A stretch of DNA of 64,000 bases from Phycisphaeraceae bacterium (GTDB lineage Bacteria > Planctomycetota > Phycisphaerae > Phycisphaerales > UBA1924): NCBI GenBank assembly GCA_019636625.1, contig JAHBXE010000020.1, positions 1 through 64,000 of the forward strand, written 5' to 3'. The first letter of the stretch is position 1; every line of letters begins with the position of its first letter. The position numbers and the translations under genes were made by a program. The notes beneath the pieces were generated by a model, which had not been told where the DNA came from, did not search any database, and saw only the letters and a list, made by a program, of their open reading frames with translations. Of the stretch, positions 51,211 to 62,697 are shown in pieces.

Positions 51211-51981
51211 CTACTTGTCTCTGCCGAACACGCCGTCCTTGGTCGCATCAATTGGAACGCCCGATGACCAATAGGTCGGCGGCGCCAAGTTGCCGTAATG
51301 ATAGAAGTTGGGTTCTCCGGGACGAAGCGCCGACTGGGCTTCATGCGTTGCGCTGCCGTCAGCCCAGAGCACCGCGCTCGGCTCATTGTGGCCGCAGCAT
51401 GCGCCGCATCCTTCCGGAAAGGCCGCGATCGTGTAGACCACCGATTGCCTCATGAACCCTTTTTGCGAAGGGAACGACACGGATGTGAGTCGTTGCGGCA
51501 CGAACTGCGACACGCCCGACTGTGTCCACCGATTCCAGAAGTCGCGACTTGCATAGAACGTGAGTGCAATGCTGTAGTCGCAGGTTCCCGTTCTTCGATA
51601 GTGAACTCTCAAGTGCGAGGGGCGCGAAGGGTCAAAGGCGATGCCGCTGACGGCGTCGCGATCAAGCAAGACGTGGTACCGCCTCGCATTCTCAAACCAT
51701 GACCCGCGAACGGGCTCGCCCTCAACTTCGACGGTCTGCCAGGGACCATCGGGGTACAGTGCCACCTCGGGCCGAAACAGTACTGGGGGCAAGTCGCGGT
51801 TGCTCTGCGAGTAGGCTTGAACGAGCACGCCGTGCTGTCGAATGTTTGACATCGAACCCAGTTCACGGCTCTTCACACGGGCGTTGCTCAATCCGTGCGC
51901 GGCGAGAGAAGCCAACAGAGAGAGGACGCCCAGAGTGACTAACAACTCAGCGAGCGTAAAGGCCCGCTGCGGAACGTGCAT
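51211..51981 (-). CDS. DUF1559 (planctomycete H-X9-DG) protein with prepilin-type N-terminus
   Basis: RAFTLAELLVTLGVLSLLASLA is a type IV pilin-like N-terminal helix. C-terminal H-NEPSAVLWA-DG matches H-X9-DG. Confidence 0.7.
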   Translation of the reverse strand: MHVPQRAFTLAELLVTLGVLSLLASLAAHGLSNARVKSRELGSMSNIRQHGVLVQAYSQSNRDLPPVLFRPEVALYPDGPWQTVEVEGEPVRGSWFENARRYHVLLDRDAVSGIAFDPSRPSHLRVHYRRTGTCDYSIALTFYASRDFWNRWTQSGVSQFVPQRLTSVSFPSQKGFMRQSVVYTIAAFPEGCGACCGHNEPSAVLWADGSATHEAQSALRPGEPNFYHYGNLAPPTYWSSGVPIDATKDGVFGRDK

Positions 51982-52026
51982 GTTGGTTTCTGTGGGTTCT
52001 GGAGGATTCACGCTTGACAGAATAGT

Positions 52027-52040
52027 GGGGGGGGGGGGGT
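52027..52040. repeat. poly-G tract (13-14 G) in a divergent promoter region
   Basis: Directly visible. It lies between the DUF1559 gene start (51981, minus) and the Cys-rich peptide gene start (52072, plus), ~30 bp upstream of the latter's RBS. Confidence 0.8.
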
Positions 52041-52071
52041 ATTCTGTCAAACGTGTTCAAGGAGGTGACCC

Positions 52072-54088: not shown

Positions 54089-54166
54089 AAGCTGCGACCC
54101 TGACCTCACCGTCACGCTGGGGTCGACTCGGCTGCAGTGGTCCAGATCGTCCTAGACTCTGCCCCC

Positions 54167-55288
54167 ATGCGATACGCGATGATCATGGCCGGTGGCGCCG
54201 GCACCCGTCTTTGGCCGATGAGCCGGGCCGACCGGCCCAAGCAGTTGCTCAAGTTCATTGAACAGCCGGGGGATCCGCAGCCGCGGTCGCTGCTGGAGAT
54301 CGCGGCGATGCGGCTGGAGGGGTTGATCGCGCCGGAGCAGCGGTACATCTGCACGGCGGAGGCGTACCGGGGGGCGATCCGGGCGGCGTTGCCGGAGTTC
54401 ACGGATGAACGGATCCTGGGCGAGCCGATGGGTCGGGACACGGTGAACGCGGTGGGGCTGGCGGCGGCGGTGTTTCAGAAGATCGATCCGGAGGCGGTGT
54501 TCGCGGTGCTGACGGCGGACCACATCATCACGCCGCGGGAGAAGTTTCAGTCGCTGATGGATGCGGGGTTCCGGCTGGTGGAGGAGGATCCATCGCGGCT
54601 GGTGACGTTCTCGATCAAGCCGACGTATCCGGCGACGGGGTTTGGGTATGTGGAGCGTGGGGCGCCGCTGGGTGGGGGAGTGGATGGGCAGGCGTACCGG
54701 GTGGCGCGGTTCGTGGAGAAGCCGGACCTGCCTCGGGCGACGGCGTACGTGCAGTCGGGGGTGTTCGGGTGGAACAGCGGGATGTTCGTGTGGAAGGCCG
54801 GCACATTTCTAAGTGCGTTGAAGCAGTTTAAGCCCGAGAGCTTTGACGGGCTGATGAAGATCCAGGAGGCGTGGGGGACGGACCGGCAGCGGCAGGTGCT
54901 GGGCGAGGTGTACCCGACGCTGCCCAAGACGAGCGTGGATTACGCGGTGATGGAGCCGGCGAGCAAGAGCCGCGAGCGGCAGTTCAGCGTGTGCACGGTG
55001 CTGATGGACCTGGAGTGGCTGGATGTGGGGAGCTGGCCGAGCTTCGGGCAGACGGTGCCGGCCGATGGGCAGAAGAACCGTGTCGCGGCGGGCGGGGGCG
55101 GGAAGGCGACGATCGTGAACAGCACGGGGAACCTGGTGGTGAACCCGGTGAAGGGGCACACGGTGGCGCTCTTGGGGTGCAAGGACCTGATCGTGGTGCA
55201 CACGGAGGATGCGACGCTGGTGATGCCGCGGGAGCGGGCGGAGGAGTTGAAGGAGTTGCACGGGAAGGTGGCGGAGGGGTTGAGGTAG
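54167..55288 (+). CDS. mannose-1-phosphate guanylyltransferase (GDP-mannose pyrophosphorylase)
   Basis: MIMAGGAGTRLWPMSR is the nucleotidyltransferase G-loop. Overall ManC/GMP-like organisation. Confidence 0.8.
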   Translation: MRYAMIMAGGAGTRLWPMSRADRPKQLLKFIEQPGDPQPRSLLEIAAMRLEGLIAPEQRYICTAEAYRGAIRAALPEFTDERILGEPMGRDTVNAVGLAAAVFQKIDPEAVFAVLTADHIITPREKFQSLMDAGFRLVEEDPSRLVTFSIKPTYPATGFGYVERGAPLGGGVDGQAYRVARFVEKPDLPRATAYVQSGVFGWNSGMFVWKAGTFLSALKQFKPESFDGLMKIQEAWGTDRQRQVLGEVYPTLPKTSVDYAVMEPASKSRERQFSVCTVLMDLEWLDVGSWPSFGQTVPADGQKNRVAAGGGGKATIVNSTGNLVVNPVKGHTVALLGCKDLIVVHTEDATLVMPRERAEELKELHGKVAEGLR

Positions 55289-55306: not shown

Positions 55307-57820
55307 TCATTCCTCGACAAGTCCCTCGAAGGTCGATTTGAAGTCGTCTTCCGATAGCGCCGTATCCCACAGCCCGATGTCCAACGGGCGGTGGCGTTCG
55401 ACCCCCATGTATCGCAAGCTCGCATCTTCGTAGCGCCGGAACTTCCAGACCGCATCGTTCATGAGAGCGCTGTTGAACACTCCGAGACTTACCAGCCGTT
55501 CGAAGTCGGCGGTCGTCAGGCCTGTGACCTTCTGGAATAGCTTCGGCTCGATCTTGGTGATGACATCCTTGAGTCGCTGTTCTCGGTAGTCGGTCAGGTA
55601 CATGAAAACCGGAATTCGCGCCGCGAACTTGATGAGTTTTTCCTGTACCTGCTTGCGCAGGGTCTTGCGTTCCTTTTCGGCCTCCGTAAGCTGCCGTTTG
55701 TCGGTTTCCGGAACATCTTCGCCCTCGCCGAGCTTTCGCTTGGTGTCCTTGATCTGCTCCGAGCGGTTGATAATGGTCTCGAAGAGTTCGCCCGCGTTGA
55801 GATTGCGAAACCCCTCGATATTCGCGATCGCGGCCATTGCCGCCTCGTCCGTCATCAACCTGTTGAGCGTGCCATCGTCGACGTTTACCAACAGCACACT
55901 TTCCCATCGCTTGGCAAGGAGGGTCGCGCTCGTGCCGGCGGTGGCCATATCCAGAATCGCTTCGGCATCCAGTTGCCGCATGGCGCTTCCGTCGTAGGCG
56001 AGCACCGGGAGAAAGCCGACCAGGTCCGCCACGCGCTGCTCGGGTGTCGATTCATCCGTCGCCAGGCGTGAGCCGTAATCCGCGATCTGCCTCAGTGCTC
56101 GATTGGGTGCGAAGTCAAAGACGTAGCACTCCGGCTTAACGATGATCTCGTTGCCGCTTTCATCGCAGGTCGTCCAAGGCGACTGGACGCGGAACGCGCT
56201 CTGAAAGTAGGTTTCGGGGCTGCTGCACTTGCGAAGCACGAGCATCCCGGCCCAGGGCCGCACCGTCACGCCCGTTGTCAGCTTGCCGCACGAGAGCGTG
56301 ATGGTCTTGCTATTGAGCGGGTCGTCCATCGCCTCCAGCACCGGCGGCAGCGCCTCCGCGCCGATGCCCGCGCTGGCTCCTGCAGCAACTACCACGGCGT
56401 AGTCGTGGTAGAACAAGTTCTGCTTCGCTCTCAGCAAGTTCGCCATCGCGTGGCAGCTCGCGACGTTTGGCAAGAACCAGAACGTGTGATTGAGCACGCC
56501 CATCAGGCGGGCGTCGGAGAAGGGCAGCGGCGGCTTGTCCTTTCCCAGTTTCAGGTCATCGACTGTCAGCCCCTTGTAGGCGCCGCGGATCAGGTCAAGC
56601 CATTTCTGCACTTCGTTGAGATGCACGAACGCCGCGGTATCGCCCTCACCCTCGGCTCGAAAAAACTCGTTCAGGTCGAACTCGTTGAACTCGCCCATTT
56701 CCGCGACCTGCCGAATCTCATCCGGCAGGGTGTAGGTCATCAGCACCAGGCGCGGGAGCGATGCGTAGGGGTTGGGGCCTGGGCCCTTCCAGTCGCGTTT
56801 GGCCCGCTGCTCATCGCTGTAGGTCCAGTTGTAGATCTGTTCCTCGATAAACTCGCCCGAGGCAAGGGCTCGGAATGGGGTGCCCGAGAGGTAGAGGTAG
56901 TGCTTGGTTTCGATAGGCAGGATCGACTCATCAAACGCCTGCTCATCCTTACTGATTTCGGCCGCGACTTCGCCTTCATCTTCCTCATCTGCGCCAAAGA
57001 GCCCCTTGGCGTTCTCACGCCATGCCCCGAAGTGGTACTCATCGAGGATCACGCAGTCCCATTCGGTCAGGTGGACCCACTCGTTCTTGGCCTTGATCGC
57101 ACCCGTGCGGTCACGCTGCAAGTAGTCTTGAAAGCTCCCAAAGCAGACGATCGGCCGATTTGGGTCGGCCTCTTCATAGGTCAGGTCGTTGGTCCGGCTG
57201 ATGAATTGCCATCCTTCAAAGTCGATGTGACGATTCAGGTCTTCCGCCCAGGCGTGCACGACGGCGGGCTTGAAGGTCAACACCAAGACCTTGGTCCAAC
57301 CCATCTTCTTTGCCAGTTGATACGCGGCGAAGGTCTTGCCGAAGCGCATCTTGGCATTCCACAGGAAGTGCGGCGTGCGGCCCTTCTGCTCGGTCGCGGC
57401 CTTGGTGAAGTATTCTGCCGTGATCTGGACGGCTTCGGCCTGCTCGGGGCGCATGTCGAAGGAGAGGGTGCGGTCCTCGCGGTTCGCGGTGCGCTCGCGG
57501 ACGGCGAGGATGGCGGCCTGCACGTCCTTGACGGTGCAGCGGAACCACTCGTTGGTCTCTCGCCTGAGCTTCTTGGCCAGTAGGTGTCGGTGCACGTCAC
57601 GGTCGGTGAAGCTGGTGCCATCGGCCCGCATGGCGGAGTCGACCAGGGCGATGGTGTACGGCGTCATACCAGCAGGGAACTGCTCGGCGATGCGCGCGGC
57701 GGCGTTGCGCTCGGTGTAGCCGACCTTCAGCAGGCCCTTGTGGTCGGGGTGGGTGCTTGCGTAGGCGTAGATGGTTGGCGAGGCGCCAGGGCGAGGCGGG
57801 AAAAACTCTTGGGGTTGCAT
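55307..57820 (-). CDS. T5orf172/GIY-YIG-like domain fused to a DEAD/DExH-type helicase (restriction-enzyme-like)
   Basis: N-terminal TIYAYASTHPDHKGLLKVGYTERNAAARI (T5orf172-like). Walker A MRFGKTFAAYQL and DExH box VILDEYHFGA. 837 aa. Follows two DNA methyltransferase genes on the same strand. Confidence 0.65.
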   Translation of the reverse strand: MQPQEFFPPRPGASPTIYAYASTHPDHKGLLKVGYTERNAAARIAEQFPAGMTPYTIALVDSAMRADGTSFTDRDVHRHLLAKKLRRETNEWFRCTVKDVQAAILAVRERTANREDRTLSFDMRPEQAEAVQITAEYFTKAATEQKGRTPHFLWNAKMRFGKTFAAYQLAKKMGWTKVLVLTFKPAVVHAWAEDLNRHIDFEGWQFISRTNDLTYEEADPNRPIVCFGSFQDYLQRDRTGAIKAKNEWVHLTEWDCVILDEYHFGAWRENAKGLFGADEEDEGEVAAEISKDEQAFDESILPIETKHYLYLSGTPFRALASGEFIEEQIYNWTYSDEQRAKRDWKGPGPNPYASLPRLVLMTYTLPDEIRQVAEMGEFNEFDLNEFFRAEGEGDTAAFVHLNEVQKWLDLIRGAYKGLTVDDLKLGKDKPPLPFSDARLMGVLNHTFWFLPNVASCHAMANLLRAKQNLFYHDYAVVVAAGASAGIGAEALPPVLEAMDDPLNSKTITLSCGKLTTGVTVRPWAGMLVLRKCSSPETYFQSAFRVQSPWTTCDESGNEIIVKPECYVFDFAPNRALRQIADYGSRLATDESTPEQRVADLVGFLPVLAYDGSAMRQLDAEAILDMATAGTSATLLAKRWESVLLVNVDDGTLNRLMTDEAAMAAIANIEGFRNLNAGELFETIINRSEQIKDTKRKLGEGEDVPETDKRQLTEAEKERKTLRKQVQEKLIKFAARIPVFMYLTDYREQRLKDVITKIEPKLFQKVTGLTTADFERLVSLGVFNSALMNDAVWKFRRYEDASLRYMGVERHRPLDIGLWDTALSEDDFKSTFEGLVEE

Positions 57821-57835
57821 GTCGTGATTCCGGGA

Positions 57836-59413
57836 TCACTCATCGTCTTCGATCGAGCCTTCATCGCCGCTCGTCGAATCGTCCATAGGCCGCACGATTT
57901 TCTCGATGAATGAGATCTCCTCGGCGGAGAGGCTGTACTTCTTGTAGAGGTCCTTGTCTGTCCACTCCTTCGACCACTTCTGCAACGGCACAAATGTGTA
58001 GACCTTTCGGGTCGTGTCCTGTGCGGGCTTGTGCAGTAAAATCAGGAACCGCGTGAACCTGCAGTAGAGGTAAGACAGCGCGCTTTCGGCCTCTGCCTTG
58101 GAACTAAAGGGGCCAATGCATAGATATGTCTCGGAGCAAATGCTGCCGGGCTCGCCCACAAACGGCGTGCTGATGACGCGGTGGGGATAGGTGTCCTTGT
58201 TGCCGGTTCCCGGCGCCGCGCGCCCAACGTAGATCTTCCAACAGTCAATCAACTCCGTTCCCACCTCAATGGAGCCCCTCGGTGTGTAGCCCTTGCCCCC
58301 ATTCTGGTACACGACAACGTCACCGCTCGCCTTGGTGGTCTTGCCCTTGAAGTATGTCCGGAGTCCGAACGGTCGAAGCGAACTGATGAGACGATCAAAG
58401 CGAGAGCCGTCTGGCAACTCAAGCGTGTTTGCATCAGGTCGCTCCGCGGCAGCGACCTTTCGGAGAATCGCGAGTCCTTCGTTAAATCGCACGAAGATGC
58501 CCACGCCGGTTTCCTGAATCTCACGGATCGCGGAGGAGACCGGCCAGTCCTTGAAGTGTGTCGAAACACGACATGGACCCGGGTTGTCGCGATCCCACAG
58601 GAAATAGCACACCCCGCCTTTCAGCCCGATGCCCGGGAACAGATCGGACGCAGTGAGGTAGTCGGTGATTGACCGCAGCCGCCGGTCCTTGAGCATCGTC
58701 TCCCTGAACGCGTCCAGCCCCTTTCCGCCCGCAAACCACCGCGCGGGAATGACCATTGTCAGATACCGTGGTTGGAGCTTCATGGCCTGCTGTACGAACT
58801 CGTGGTAGATCGGCGATGCGCTCCGTCCGAACCCGCCGTCGTTCATCTGGTAGGGTGGGTTGCCGACGATGACATCAAACTTCACACTAAACTCCTTTGT
58901 CGGATCGACACCGTGGATGAGCGGGTAGGCATAGGCCTCTCGGCCCTCGTCGCGATTTAGTTCTGTCTTGGTCGCGCCGCATTCGGCGCACCGGCCGGAC
59001 TTGTCCCACGTGTGGCTCGTCCTCGGCAGCCGGATGTTCCCATCCGCCCGCGTGAAGGCCGTGGCGATGCTGAACTTCCCGTCGGCCTTCTTCGAGCAGT
59101 ACACGCTCCGCCTGGCGATGTGGCCGGTCAGTTCGGTGATCGCCAGCCCGAAGACCTGCCGCGTTAGGATGTGGTCGATGCGGGCCTGCGTGTCGGGCAT
59201 TTGGTCCTTGAGCCCCTCGTTGAGCCTACGGGCGATCTCGCGCAGGAAGACGCCCGACTTGCACACGGGGTCAAGGAACGTCGTGTCCGGTCGGCGGAAG
59301 AGGTCCTCCGGCAAGAGGTCAAGCATCGCCGCTGCGAGCTTGGGCGGCGTGAAGACCTCATCGGCGCTGAGGTTGGCCAGGCAAGTGAGGATGTCGGGGT
59401 TATGCCCGTTCAA
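57836..59413 (-). CDS. N6-adenine DNA methyltransferase, Eco57I-family with C-terminal specificity domain
   Basis: EVFTPP...FLDPVCKSGVFL (motif X/I) and VIVGNPPYQ (motif IV, NPPY). Confidence 0.75.
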   Translation of the reverse strand: MNGHNPDILTCLANLSADEVFTPPKLAAAMLDLLPEDLFRRPDTTFLDPVCKSGVFLREIARRLNEGLKDQMPDTQARIDHILTRQVFGLAITELTGHIARRSVYCSKKADGKFSIATAFTRADGNIRLPRTSHTWDKSGRCAECGATKTELNRDEGREAYAYPLIHGVDPTKEFSVKFDVIVGNPPYQMNDGGFGRSASPIYHEFVQQAMKLQPRYLTMVIPARWFAGGKGLDAFRETMLKDRRLRSITDYLTASDLFPGIGLKGGVCYFLWDRDNPGPCRVSTHFKDWPVSSAIREIQETGVGIFVRFNEGLAILRKVAAAERPDANTLELPDGSRFDRLISSLRPFGLRTYFKGKTTKASGDVVVYQNGGKGYTPRGSIEVGTELIDCWKIYVGRAAPGTGNKDTYPHRVISTPFVGEPGSICSETYLCIGPFSSKAEAESALSYLYCRFTRFLILLHKPAQDTTRKVYTFVPLQKWSKEWTDKDLYKKYSLSAEEISFIEKIVRPMDDSTSGDEGSIEDDE

Positions 59414-60098
59414 TCGAGGCCTCGGCGTCGCCCACCTTCAGGTAATGGCACGGGGGGTACTCGTCCACGGGAGTTGGGACAAAGACATCCTCTCCCAGGT
59501 CGCTGAAAAGAGGCTGGTTCGAGGTATGGGCGTGTTCGAGCAGGTGGCAGTAGGCGAAGTCCCGGCGTTTAAGCATTGAGCCGTTGATCGGCGACCACTC
59601 GGGGAACACGATCGGACGATCCTGGAGCGTGCGGAGTGTGAGGGCATCGCCCTGTACGATGTTCTTGGACAGGATATAGGCCGCCGCTTGGACAACCTCG
59701 TCGGGCGGCGGCGCTTTGAAACGGGCCGCGTAGGCATCGCTGACCACGGTCAACAGTCGGTCGCGGCAGGCGGCGATGTTGTCGGCAAGCAGGTCGATGC
59801 CGTACAGGCTGGAGATGGCCAGGATGGCGTCACGTTCCCACTTGTCGCGGTTACGGACGTTTTTTGTGTCAACGGTCAGCAGCTTTCGCCGCAGGACTTC
59901 AGCGAGGAAGTTGCCGTCGCCGCAGGCGGGTTCGAGGAAGCGCGAGTCGATGCGTTCGCACTCGTGGGCGACGAGGTTGAGCATGTCGTTCACGAGCCCG
60001 GGCGGGGTGAAGACTTCGCCGTGGTCGATGATGCGCTGGCGGGATTTCACAACCTGATTGTAGTGGGTAGTTTCCGGGAGCACGAAGACACTGGCCAC
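59400..60098 (-). CDS. short DNA-methyltransferase-like protein (motif I only, no NPPY)
   Basis: EVFTPPGLVNDML...LEPACGDGNFLAEVL resembles the N-terminus of the adjacent methyltransferase. No catalytic NPPY found. Overlaps the downstream gene by 14 nt. Confidence 0.5.
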   Translation of the reverse strand: MASVFVLPETTHYNQVVKSRQRIIDHGEVFTPPGLVNDMLNLVAHECERIDSRFLEPACGDGNFLAEVLRRKLLTVDTKNVRNRDKWERDAILAISSLYGIDLLADNIAACRDRLLTVVSDAYAARFKAPPPDEVVQAAAYILSKNIVQGDALTLRTLQDRPIVFPEWSPINGSMLKRRDFAYCHLLEHAHTSNQPLFSDLGEDVFVPTPVDEYPPCHYLKVGDAEASIERA

Positions 60099-60099
60099 T

Positions 60100-60230
60100 C
60101 AGAGCCTGTGGCCAGTGCCACCAGCAACCAGACAGTGCCACATGGGGCATGTGAAGACACTGGCCACTCAGAGCCTGTGGCCAGTGCCACCAGCGGCCTG
60201 CCAGTGCCACCGGGCGGTGGCACGGGTGTG
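60100..60230. terminator. cluster of hairpins (duplicated 42-bp palindrome-containing unit) downstream of the ABC permease gene
   Basis: GAAGACACTGGCCACtcagagccTGTGGCCAGTGCCACCAGC occurs twice, each with a 10-bp stem CACTGGCCAC/GTGGCCAGTG. GTGCCACCGggCGGTGGCAC is a further palindrome. The cluster sits just 3' of the stop at 60231 on the minus strand. Confidence 0.5.
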
Positions 60231-62102
60231 TTACTTCACGCCGGCGAGGCGGCGGACGATCATGTCGAAGTTTTTGACCATGTGGGCGTGGATGCCGTAG
60301 ATGATGGCGAAATAGAGGGGGACGGCGAGGATGCAGGCGCCGAGGAAGAGGGAGAGGCGTGGGGAGTCGAGGCCGCCGCTGCCGGTGACGGATTCGAGCA
60401 TGGCGTCGCCGGGGTAGATGGTGGCGAAGAGGAGGGAGGCGGGGCTGACGGCGCCCATGGCGGGGCCGGCGTAGGAGATGCTGCCGGCGGCGTTCCAGCC
60501 GCAGAGGCCGACGATGCCGGAGATGATGCCGGCGACGGCGACGGTGCCGACGACGGAGGAGAGGGTGCCCTTGCTTTTGAGTGACCAGTAGAGGCCGACC
60601 ATGACGCAGAAGGCCATGAAGGGGACGATGACGAGGGTGGCGAGGAGGCCGGCCTCGGGGAGGATGAGGGGCTCGGTGATGGTGGTGGTGACGACGGTGG
60701 TGGTGAGGCGGGTGTTGCCCTTGCCCAGTCCGTCGGTGAGGGTGTAGAGGCCGGCGAGGGCGAGGGTGCCGATGGGGACGGCGAGGAGGGGGAGGAGGTA
60801 GGCGATGAGGCCGCGGACCTTGCCGGAGAGGTAGGCGGCCTGGGTGATGGGGGTGGTGAGGAGGAGGTCGAGGGTGCCGTCCTCGCGTTCGCGGCTGATG
60901 GCGATGGCGGCCATGTTGACGGCGATGAGGGTGGTGACGATGAGCTCGCCCAGGACTGTGGATATGAGGGCGAGGCGGAAGTTGGCGGCGTTCATCGAGC
61001 CGGTGTGGAACATCACGATGAGGGCGATGCCCCAGAGGCCGCCGGCGGCGACGAAGCTCCAGCGGGCGAGGATGCGGCTGAAGGTGCTGTTGCGGGAGGC
61101 GGCCTCGCGCCAGGCGATGGGGTTGTGCCAGACGGCGCGTGGGGGGCGGTGTTCGGCGCCGGCGCGGCCGAAGCCGAACAGGCGGCGGTACCACGGGGCC
61201 TTGCCCGTGCGCTCGCCGGCGCCGGTGAGGGAGGACAGGCCGCCGAGGCGGACGGTGAAGGTGGAGAGGCCGACGAGGAGGAGGCTGAGCAGGGAGCTGC
61301 CGGTGCACCAGAGGGAGACGGGGGATTCGAAGAACCAGGCTCGGAGGCCGGTGAGGGTGCCGGCTTCGGCGGTCATGTAGGTGGAGGGGCTGAGGAGGGA
61401 CTTGAGGCAGAGGAAGGGGTTGAGGGCGGTCATCCAGGTGACGCCGCGGCCGCCGGGGCCGGCGCCGCTGCCGTTGGAGACGAGCCAGGCGTCGAGGGCG
61501 ATGGTGAGGGCGAGGTAGGAGACGACGGCGATGTAGAAGGCGAAGACGGCGCGTTTGCCGACGAGTCGGGAGACGGAGAGGGCGATGGCGATGGAGCCGA
61601 CGAGGAGGGCGGCGGAGCCGGCGATGGCGTAAGAGATGAAGATGGAGCGGCCGGGGACGCCGCCGAAGTACTGGGTGAGGGCGAAGAGGGGGAGTGAGGA
61701 GAGGAGGAGGGCGAGGATGAAGAAGAGGCGGCCGGAGAGGTTGCCGAGGACGATCTGGAGGGCGGAGAGGGGGGTGGTGAGGAGGACTTCCCAGGTGCGG
61801 GGGCTGGCTTCCTGGGCGATGGCGCCGGCCATGAAGACGGGGGCGAGGATGCAGATGAGGGCGACCTGGAGGTAGGCGACCCAGGCGAAGCTGTTGGCGC
61901 CGGCCTGGGCGAGCTGGGAGTAGGACATGGCGCCGGAGGAGCCGGGGGCGAGGAGGGACCAGAGGAGGACGAGGATGAGAGCGGCGAGGTAGCCGGCGCG
62001 GATATAGAGGTGGCGGGTGCGGCGGGAGCCGTTGTGGACGAGACGGACCGTGATGGGGTTGGTGGGGACGAGGCGGAGGAACCAGCGGAGGATGGGGGGC
62101 AT
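60231..62102 (-). CDS. ABC-2 type transporter permease (duplicated polytopic membrane protein)
   Basis: Start chosen at MPPILRWFLRL (ATG 62102). About 12 TM helices in two halves. No ATPase domain seen in the window. Confidence 0.6.
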   Translation of the reverse strand: MPPILRWFLRLVPTNPITVRLVHNGSRRTRHLYIRAGYLAALILVLLWSLLAPGSSGAMSYSQLAQAGANSFAWVAYLQVALICILAPVFMAGAIAQEASPRTWEVLLTTPLSALQIVLGNLSGRLFFILALLLSSLPLFALTQYFGGVPGRSIFISYAIAGSAALLVGSIAIALSVSRLVGKRAVFAFYIAVVSYLALTIALDAWLVSNGSGAGPGGRGVTWMTALNPFLCLKSLLSPSTYMTAEAGTLTGLRAWFFESPVSLWCTGSSLLSLLLVGLSTFTVRLGGLSSLTGAGERTGKAPWYRRLFGFGRAGAEHRPPRAVWHNPIAWREAASRNSTFSRILARWSFVAAGGLWGIALIVMFHTGSMNAANFRLALISTVLGELIVTTLIAVNMAAIAISREREDGTLDLLLTTPITQAAYLSGKVRGLIAYLLPLLAVPIGTLALAGLYTLTDGLGKGNTRLTTTVVTTTITEPLILPEAGLLATLVIVPFMAFCVMVGLYWSLKSKGTLSSVVGTVAVAGIISGIVGLCGWNAAGSISYAGPAMGAVSPASLLFATIYPGDAMLESVTGSGGLDSPRLSLFLGACILAVPLYFAIIYGIHAHMVKNFDMIVRRLAGVK

Positions 62103-62192
62103 TGCGGGAGATGCTACCGGGGAGGGGGGGGTTGGGTTCGGGGACGGAATCGGTGGGGGCAGCAGGGGGGGACAGGCCTTGGGAGTCGGGGA

Positions 62193-62455
62193 TTCAAAGA
62201 TGGCCACGGGTGGGAGGGGGGTTGGCCATCTTTGACATGAGGCGATTGAACGATGAGGGCGTGCGGAAGAGAGCCTTCTTTCGTTGAGATCATTTGGGTG
62301 GGCGGGGTGCACGTGGGCTTGAGGGCATCGAAGTCCCGCAAAGCCGGGACTTCGATGGCACGGGTTCAAAGATGGCCACGGGTGGTAGAGGGGTTGGCCA
62401 TCTTTGACGTGAGGCGAAGGAACGATGAGGGCGTGCGTAAGGGAGCCTTCCTTAC
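62193..62455. repeat. two ~95-bp dispersed repeat copies (~90% identical) flanking a palindromic hairpin element
   Basis: TTCAAAGATGGCCACGGGTGG...GGTTGGCCATCTTTGAC...GAACGATGAGGGCGTGCG...GAGCCTTC occurs at 62193-62285 and 62355-62452. The hairpin CATCGAAGTCCCG-caaagc-CGGGACTTCGATG at 62326-62357 has the same stem as the element at 30.8 kb. Confidence 0.75.
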
Positions 62456-62697
62456 TTTGGTTCGTTTTGTGGGGGGTGGGGGGGGCGCGATGGCGGCCAT
62501 CTGGCCAGGGAGGCTTCCGAAATTTGGTATTGGCGGAAGGCTCCGGCCATGGTAAGGTGGGCCGGGTCAGCAATGAGATCAGCTCGGTCGGGGATTGTCG
62601 CGGTGATGGCCTTGGCCGGGGTGTTCGTGTCCGCGCGGAGCGGTCTTGTCGATCGACTTGGCGAAAGCGGGCGATGGTTTTTGTTCGGAGGAATCAC

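Follow-up and report, generated by a model that had tools for sequence, protein, structure and literature searches.

A widespread three-gene cassette encoding a T5orf172 nuclease-helicase, an Eco57I-family methyltransferase and a half-methyltransferase: a candidate restriction-modification system outside the described types

Which kind of defence system, if any, is encoded by three co-directional minus-strand genes in the genome of a planctomycete, and what does the smallest of the three contribute? The genes occupy positions 55307-60098 of a 64,000-nucleotide stretch of DNA (the window) from the Phycisphaeraceae bacterium assembly GCA_019636625.1 (contig JAHBXE010000020.1), where an initial annotation had placed them and where the list of open reading frames (ORFs) confirms them. 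They encode an 837-aa protein that joins a T5orf172 nuclease domain to a helicase (the R subunit), a 525-aa DNA methyltransferase (MTase; the M subunit) and a small protein resembling half of an MTase, all within 4.75 kb. The same annotation saw in them a restriction-modification (RM)-like cluster that fits no classical type, a view that our comparisons uphold, as the cassette lacks the defining features of Types I, III, ISP and IIG/IIL. On our best reading, the system works along the lines of Type ISP, Type I or YeeABC without being a member of any of the three. From comparisons of predicted proteins and gene neighbourhoods, we consider it reasonably likely that the cassette is a functional, horizontally acquired, ATP-dependent RM system, and we propose the details of its action with low confidence.

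The nuclease-helicase, the methyltransferase and their genomic company

The pairing of a T5orf172 N-terminus with a Walker A/DExH helicase, suggested in the initial annotation, is borne out both by Pfam and by conserved motifs. The T5orf172 match of the R subunit (E 1.4e-9) lies above the cut-off, while a ResIII match at residues 121-268 barely passes (22.7 bits; cut-off 22.5). T5orf172 belongs to the GIY-YIG nuclease superfamily, and its catalytic arginine and glutamate, together with nuclease activity, have been described for the phage ICP1 protein Odn (PMC8263062). In our alignment, K32, G34, T36, R43 and E91 are invariant and Y18 is nearly so; R43 and E91—the predicted counterparts of the conserved catalytic pair that marks T5orf172 members—are retained in 29 sequences, distant ones included.

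The superfamily 2 (SF2) helicase core carries the motifs FGKT (Walker A, 160-163), DEYH (260-263), SGTP (312-315), LTTGVT (514-519) and QSAFRVQ (540-546), with Walker A, DE.H, SGTP and Q..FR.Q invariant across the family. Beyond the core lies a conserved and largely helical C-terminal region (Table 1), in which Pfam detects no PD-(D/E)xK family; a NAP1 match to this region is probably a coiled-coil artefact. NCBIfam holds no model for the R subunit, and PHROGs matches give just the generic labels ‘DNA helicase’ and ‘DNA methyltransferase’. Searching the PDB by sequence and by profile returned nothing useful for the helicase, and Foldseek, run with a low-confidence AlphaFold2 model (predicted local distance difference test, pLDDT, 49.3), found generic SF2 proteins alone (for example XPB, Snf2, SauUSI and HsdR).

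The 525-aa protein had been described as an Eco57I-family MTase with an NPPY motif, and so it proved: Pfam Eco57I matches residues 86-259 (E 3.8e-30) and NPPY stands at residues 185-188 (58850-58861). MmeI_Mtase in Pfam stays below its cut-off (E 0.062). Among PADLOC models, the protein matches MTase_II (E 1.1e-51) and REase_MTase_IIG (E 1.2e-44), and profile and sequence searches of the PDB give remote matches to Type I HsdM, MmeI and BREX PglX. The order of motifs (X, I, then IV) and the C-terminal position of the variable domain are those of the gamma class, and judged by its sequence the M subunit is a gamma-class Eco57I-family N6-adenine MTase with a C-terminal target-recognition domain (TRD).

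Its catalytic domain carries motif X as EVFTPP and an invariant FDV..NPPY. Motif I is non-canonical (DPVCKSGVF, with an invariant lysine, K52, in the glycine loop), and the alignment reveals no recognisable motif III. Four cysteines (C11, C106, C142 and C145; window positions 58979-59101 and 59381-59383) are invariant in all 34 aligned MTases, which suggests a zinc-binding insertion between motifs II and IV.

The TRD follows a different pattern. MTase conservation is 0.57-0.81 over residues 1-280 and 0.21-0.60 over residues 281-420. The window TRD is 66-73% identical to those of four loci (L003, L012, L041 and L060) and 23-38% identical to those of all other loci, independently of helicase or catalytic-domain identity. 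L041 and L060 have a TRD similar to that of the window, yet their catalytic domains are just 63% identical to the window's catalytic domain; in L001, L005 and L015, the TRDs are 29-32% identical though the catalytic domains reach 73-78% and the helicase of L001 80%. This mosaic pattern indicates that the TRD has been exchanged between lineages independently of the other parts, as in RM specificity modules.

To place the cassette among its relatives, one genome per species was scanned for relatives of the helicase and 80 loci were fetched, 58 of them with at least 2.3 kb of DNA upstream of the helicase gene. Homologues of the R subunit fill more than 8000 clusters, of which the best 120 share at least 78% identity with it, and a search with the small protein scored at least 8000 protein clusters. 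Database proteins P0001 and P0121 are 100% identical to window proteins. Since each of the three ORFs has thousands of homologues, they are genuine genes and not chance ORFs of a GC-rich genome.

Helicase relatives occur in at least 588 species-genome stretches at 62-85% identity, their hosts belonging to Planctomycetota, Verrucomicrobiota, Bacteroidota, Cyanobacteria, Pseudomonadota, Actinomycetota, Chloroflexota, Acidobacteriota and Spirochaetota, with one archaeal metagenome-assembled genome (Woesearchaeota). Identities of this order across phyla are typical of horizontally moving genes. The cassette is also found on plasmids of Sphingopyxis (L084) and Mycolicibacterium (L085), in a temperate gut phage and within an integrative element that encodes an integrase, a serine recombinase and a Rep protein. 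The neighbourhoods of L084, L085 and L090 are typical defence-island company, with DUF262, HigBA, an AAA ATPase with an S8 peptidase, TIR and HIT domains, a helicase-related gene with DUF1156, and SIR2 with an SMC-like ATPase.

Gene order is small-MTase-helicase in 55 of the 58 loci with enough upstream DNA, and in 55 of the 58 the small protein is a separate, uninterrupted ORF of about 210-240 aa; small and MTase matches nearly abut (median gap 8 nt). Between M and R, by contrast, extra genes (0.3-3.7 kb) are present in 20 of the 55 complete cassettes, including those of L004, L010, L018, L020, L029, L033, L038, L041, L042, L050-L052, L056, L058, L068, L079 and L082. Among these passengers are DUF1016/YhcG, RhuM, Bro-N, Fic/DOC, AbiEi/AbiEii, DUF3800, IS200-like and PIN-type toxin-antitoxin genes. 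Type I RM operons are reported to carry DUF1016, RhuM and Fic/DOC genes amid their core genes (PMC9881135), so it seems that accessory defence genes accumulate preferentially between M and R.

R and M also occur as one polypeptide. A 1417-aa T5orf172 + ResIII + Eco57I protein, encoded on Pediococcus pRS5 and other Lactobacillales plasmids, aligns with the R subunit over its N-terminal 680 residues and with the M subunit over its C-terminal 480 (31% identity, E 2e-77). The cysteine-bearing segment is missing from this fused enzyme, and a small-protein homologue—with a degenerate glycine loop—still precedes its gene. R and M of the window match separate parts (positions 151-674 and 864-1348) of a single PADLOC model, PDLC03626, which has 1359 positions, is named ‘Type IIG restriction enzyme-methyltransferase’ and covers the fused form; the match reflects the MTase and helicase parts of a fused relative. 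In the fused proteins, the stretch from helicase core to MTase occupies the same position as the C-terminal region of the R subunit, which by this analogy may act as a coupler or as an MTase-docking region.

Placement among restriction and defence systems

The fusion of R and M, the exchange of TRDs, the kept gene order, the intact motifs, the RM-type passengers and the mobility of the cassette all support the RM reading, and in the window every catalytic signature is intact: R43 and E91 in the nuclease, GKT in Walker A, DEYH and NPPY. In such a system, the M subunit would read a short, probably asymmetric DNA site through its variable C-terminal domain and would methylate adenines of host DNA at N6, probably in a single strand. 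The R subunit would dock on the MTase and, on unmodified foreign DNA, its SF2 motor would translocate along the double strand at the expense of ATP. Cutting would fall to its N-terminal T5orf172 domain; to argue from Type ISP and Type I enzymes, it would probably occur at a distance from the site and be triggered by collision or stalling. As partner of the MTase, the small protein might make the activity of the complex depend on the state of the cofactor or of the modification, a role that we put forward with low confidence.

The closest described architecture is YeeA(DnmA)-YeeB-YeeC. Morgan et al. (2009; PMC2731913) predicted systems that combine an MTase, a helicase and a GIY-YIG nuclease, and yeeAB protect Vibrio crassostreae from phage (bioRxiv 10.1101/2021.05.05.442762). 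YeeABC and the present cassette share a gamma-class N6-adenine MTase with its own TRD, an SF2 helicase and a T5orf172 nuclease, as well as operon logic, a mobile-island context and the lack of a second MTase. Going by the published descriptions of YeeB and YeeC, the two differ in that T5orf172 is fused to the N-terminus of the helicase here, whereas in YeeABC it forms the C-terminal domain of a protein of its own, YeeC. In addition, the M subunit is a 525-aa Eco57I-family protein rather than an MmeI-like MTase of ~880 aa without a nuclease motif, and the cassette has a further conserved subunit, the half-MTase.

Type ISP enzymes (LlaGI and LlaBIII; PDB 4XQK) follow the same logic of nuclease, SF2 motor, coupler, gamma-class MTase and TRD, and the fused relatives match their linear domain order in one polypeptide, but not their nuclease fold. 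The cassette is set apart from them by a T5orf172/GIY-YIG-like nuclease in place of Mrr/PD-(D/E)xK, by the split between R and M and by its third subunit; in sequence searches of the PDB, neither the single protein nor the family profile matches LlaBIII.

With Type III systems (Mod/Res, such as EcoP15I), the cassette has in common a separate MTase with its own TRD, a helicase-nuclease subunit and the ResIII match. However, Mod is a beta-class enzyme (motif IV before motif I) with an internal TRD, in contrast to the gamma-class order and C-terminal TRD found here, and Res has its helicase at the N-terminus and a PD-(D/E)xK nuclease at the C-terminus, whereas here the nuclease is an N-terminal T5orf172 domain. 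Type IIG/IIL enzymes (Eco57I, MmeI, BpuSI) likewise combine an Eco57I-family MTase with a TRD module, and a IIG-named PADLOC model is matched, yet these enzymes have no ATPase or helicase and carry a PD-ExK nuclease in the MTase chain, unlike a cassette with a DEYH helicase. Type I systems differ in having a separate HsdS with two TRDs and an N-terminal PD-(D/E)xK domain in HsdR; in the cassette, the variable domain lies inside the MTase, and Pfam finds no Methylase_S or HsdM_N domain in any of its proteins.

Several points weigh against a working RM system. The non-canonical motif I and the want of a recognisable motif III make the activity of the MTase an assumption. Single-strand methylation and distant cleavage are proposed by analogy only. 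The Bacillus subtilis DnmA-YeeB-YeeC system gave no phage protection or restriction, and an epigenetic role has been proposed for its MTase (PMC9973331), so that architecture alone is no proof of defence. The AlphaFold2 models are poor (pLDDT 63 for the small protein and 49 for R), probably because the alignments were limited to homologues of at least 72% identity, and therefore lend no structural support to nuclease geometry, motor class or subunit contacts. The family is without a known experiment: no publication characterising the small-MTase-helicase cassette was found in the literature searched, a term search of a 2025 review of host-dependent restriction-modification did not turn it up, and neither PADLOC nor NCBIfam has a named system matching all three genes, in keeping with the initial description of an uncharacterised variant.

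The three exceptions to the gene order (L011, L039 and L046), together with L002, also count against the reading, as they look decayed. In L002 (5417-7111), insertion sequence transposase genes (DDE_Tnp_1 and Y1_Tnp) stand in place of most of the MTase gene and the helicase ORF is intact; in L011 (7353-7984), a frameshifted small gene adjoins the helicase gene and the MTase gene is gone. An intact R gene without an MTase suggests either that the R subunit is inactive alone or that the loss was recent.

Two other functions were weighed for the cassette as a whole. The N-terminal region of the MTase has weak, partial similarity to PglX and mad2, which would suit a system that tells self from non-self by methylation in the manner of BREX or DISARM, with a helicase-nuclease that blocks, degrades or nicks foreign DNA without defined double-strand cuts. 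An extra non-catalytic subunit suggests control beyond plain RM, and one paper on T5orf172 describes a nuclease effector that nicks. However, the PglX and mad2 matches score well short of the curated cut-offs, the three genes form a unit complete in itself and no other core genes of BREX, DISARM or MADS (PglZ, BrxC, BrxL; DrmA, DrmB; mad1-8) are present in the window or the related loci, so we regard this mode of action as unlikely.

That the locus is mainly an epigenetic or orphan MTase locus with a silent or relic restriction arm appears quite improbable. The B. subtilis system offers a precedent, decayed cassettes occur, and three related MTases (P0327, P0332 and P0374) stand alone without an adjoining helicase. 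Against this, the window ORFs are full length with every catalytic motif in place, and no part of the cassette is better conserved than R (mean column conservation 0.77 versus 0.62 for the MTase), which points to strong purifying selection on restriction.

If the RM reading is right, the cassette would join Type ISP (Mrr, one chain) and YeeABC (three separate activities) as a third way of combining nuclease, motor and methylase, with a conserved non-catalytic half-MTase subunit as the added element. The family is very large—spanning the species genomes, plasmids and phages listed above—yet its annotation is generic only. Characterisation would allow REBASE-type resources to place thousands of genes in a defined class, would show whether a translocase can drive T5orf172 nucleases and would test whether restriction is under the control of an MTase-derived pseudo-enzyme. 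A swappable TRD and compact size also make the cassette a candidate for programmable methylation or restriction tools.

The half-methyltransferase subunit

The small protein was initially credited with 232 aa and with motif I only. The open frame does extend that far, to GTG 60098, but this codon lies inside a 58-nt repeat; the NCBI model (P0121) has 216 aa and the alignment of homologues agrees with it, which makes GTG 60050 the likelier start. As for motifs, X, I, II and III can all be recognised (GEVFTPP, EPACGDGNF, YGIDL and QGDAL), and they are followed by IVF(S/P)EWS, seen as PEWS in the window, and by a conserved tail. NPPY (motif IV) and all of motifs IV-VIII are absent, both from the sequence and from the alignment of homologues. 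The retained motifs are strongly conserved: FLEPA(C)GxGNF and YG(I/V)(D/E) in 52 of 52 small proteins and N(I)xxGDAL in 49 of 52, with the acidic residue of motif II kept in 52 and the aspartate of GDAL in 49. The small protein probably still binds S-adenosylmethionine (SAM), to judge from these residues.

Pfam yields weak N-terminal MTase matches only, and PGAP names one homologue ‘type III restriction endonuclease subunit M’. An AlphaFold2 model (pLDDT 62.9) searched against the PDB with Foldseek gave nothing at E<0.5, and LlaBIII weakly. Profile comparison was more telling: hhalign places residues 26-112 of the small protein on residues 17-101 of the MTase, covering motifs X, I and II (97.7% probability, E 1.3e-12). 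We take the small protein for a gamma-class MTase paralogue that corresponds to the N-terminal half alone.

Its probable origin is illustrated by the three stand-alone proteins mentioned above, P0327 (L087 6001-7743), P0332 (L086 276-1778) and P0374 (L088 443-2041). These are complete Eco57I-type MTases in which an N-terminal half like the small protein is joined in frame to a half like the M subunit, with NPPY and TRD. They may represent the ancestral undivided MTase or a secondary fusion after loss of the R gene; their architecture implies that the small protein derives from that half of a canonical Eco57I-type MTase which binds the cofactor.

What might such a subunit do? A second-strand MTase and a specificity subunit had both been suggested, and neither idea survives: the first is excluded by the lack of motifs IV-VIII, the second by the observation that identity of the small protein tracks that of the helicase and the catalytic domain and does not co-vary with the TRD. 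A functionless fragment left by duplication or recombination of the MTase gene would explain why the small protein is a paralogue of the N-terminal half and why its longest frame starts inside a repeat, but this reading is effectively refuted and a pseudogene excluded by conservation—a separate ORF in 55 of 58 loci across phyla, 23 invariant columns, an invariant E-W, a tail that stays conserved past the region resembling an MTase, as many as 591 representative clusters at E<=1e-30 (nearly all of 200-290 aa) and a homologue retained beside the fused R-M protein.

With a fragment set aside, the MTase may depend on the small protein as an obligatory partner, structural or regulatory, a role that we infer with low confidence from its conservation. 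A more specific proposal, which we hold to be doubtful, is that of an essential SAM-binding pseudo-enzyme, either providing motifs I-III in trans to the non-canonical M subunit or sensing SAM and S-adenosylhomocysteine (SAH) to license the helicase-nuclease. The idea of a cofactor half acting in trans arises because the N-terminal half of the M subunit is itself non-canonical, with its lysine in the glycine loop, its lack of motif III and its four-cysteine insertion. If this proved true, a restriction system would be under the control of a dedicated half-MTase subunit; in the literature searched, and to our knowledge, no such control has been described for any RM type.

Coordinates, flanks and composition

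The stop of the small gene and the start of the MTase gene overlap by 14 nt, and 15 nt separate the MTase stop from the helicase ATG. Coordinates of the genes, their domains and their flanks are collected in Table 1.

Table 1. Features of the cassette and of its flanks, in window coordinates.
Feature	Positions	Strand	Extent	Basis or remark
Small gene, longest open frame	59400-60098	-	232 aa	GTG start; ORF list
Small subunit, favoured start	59400-60050	-	216 aa from GTG 60050	NCBI model and homologue alignment; open frame extends to GTG 60098
MTase gene (M subunit)	57836-59413	-	525 aa	TTG start; ORF list
MTase catalytic domain	58574-59413	-	residues 1-280	invariant columns of alignment
Variable TRD	58004-58573	-	residues 281-470	conservation drop and mosaic identity pattern
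Nuclease-helicase gene (R subunit)	55307-57820	-	837 aa	ATG start; ORF list
T5orf172 (GIY-YIG-like) nuclease domain	57506-57769	-	residues 18-105	Pfam and invariant columns of alignment
SF2 helicase core	56051-57460	-	residues 121-590	Pfam, conserved motifs
C-terminal region of R, conserved and largely helical	55310-56050	-	residues 591-837	blocks of 20 residues score 0.69-0.89 in conservation as far as residue 820
Two tandem 58-nt hairpin-bearing repeats and third hairpin	60084-60226	.		between ABC-2 permease stop and small gene
manC-like gene	54137-55288			flank of cassette; NTP_transferase and ManC beta-helix
ABC-2 permease	60231-62573			other flank of cassette

The cassette differs in composition from its surroundings, a check that the initial annotation had proposed. 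Its GC content (0.608) is the lowest of 238 overlapping 4.7-kb stretches of the window (median 0.661), and GC at third codon positions is 0.79-0.80, compared with 0.89-0.90 in the adjoining manC and ABC-2 genes. The manC flank reported earlier is indeed there, and a MauE-like gene is also among the neighbours in the window.

The hairpin repeats noted upstream of the cassette are likewise real. Two copies of the 58-nt repeat (60084-60141 and 60153-60210) are 93% identical, each with a perfect 10-bp stem, and a third hairpin lies at 60201-60226; the RNA fold z-score of the region is -2.87. A dispersed family of repetitive extragenic palindromes (REP) or miniature inverted-repeat transposable elements (MITE) is unsupported, as the repeat occurs in two copies within the window and in one exact match among metagenome contigs (L092). 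Scans for promoters and terminators performed no better than on shuffled sequences. The repeats probably represent a terminator region or the scar left by an insertion, and as part of the cassette system they may be counted as a candidate only.

Elsewhere in the window, a minus-strand gene at 51211-52050 encodes a protein with a prepilin-type N-terminal methylation motif (PF07963). Prepilin proteins of this type are abundant in Planctomycetota, and the gene fits the Phycisphaeraceae origin of the window.

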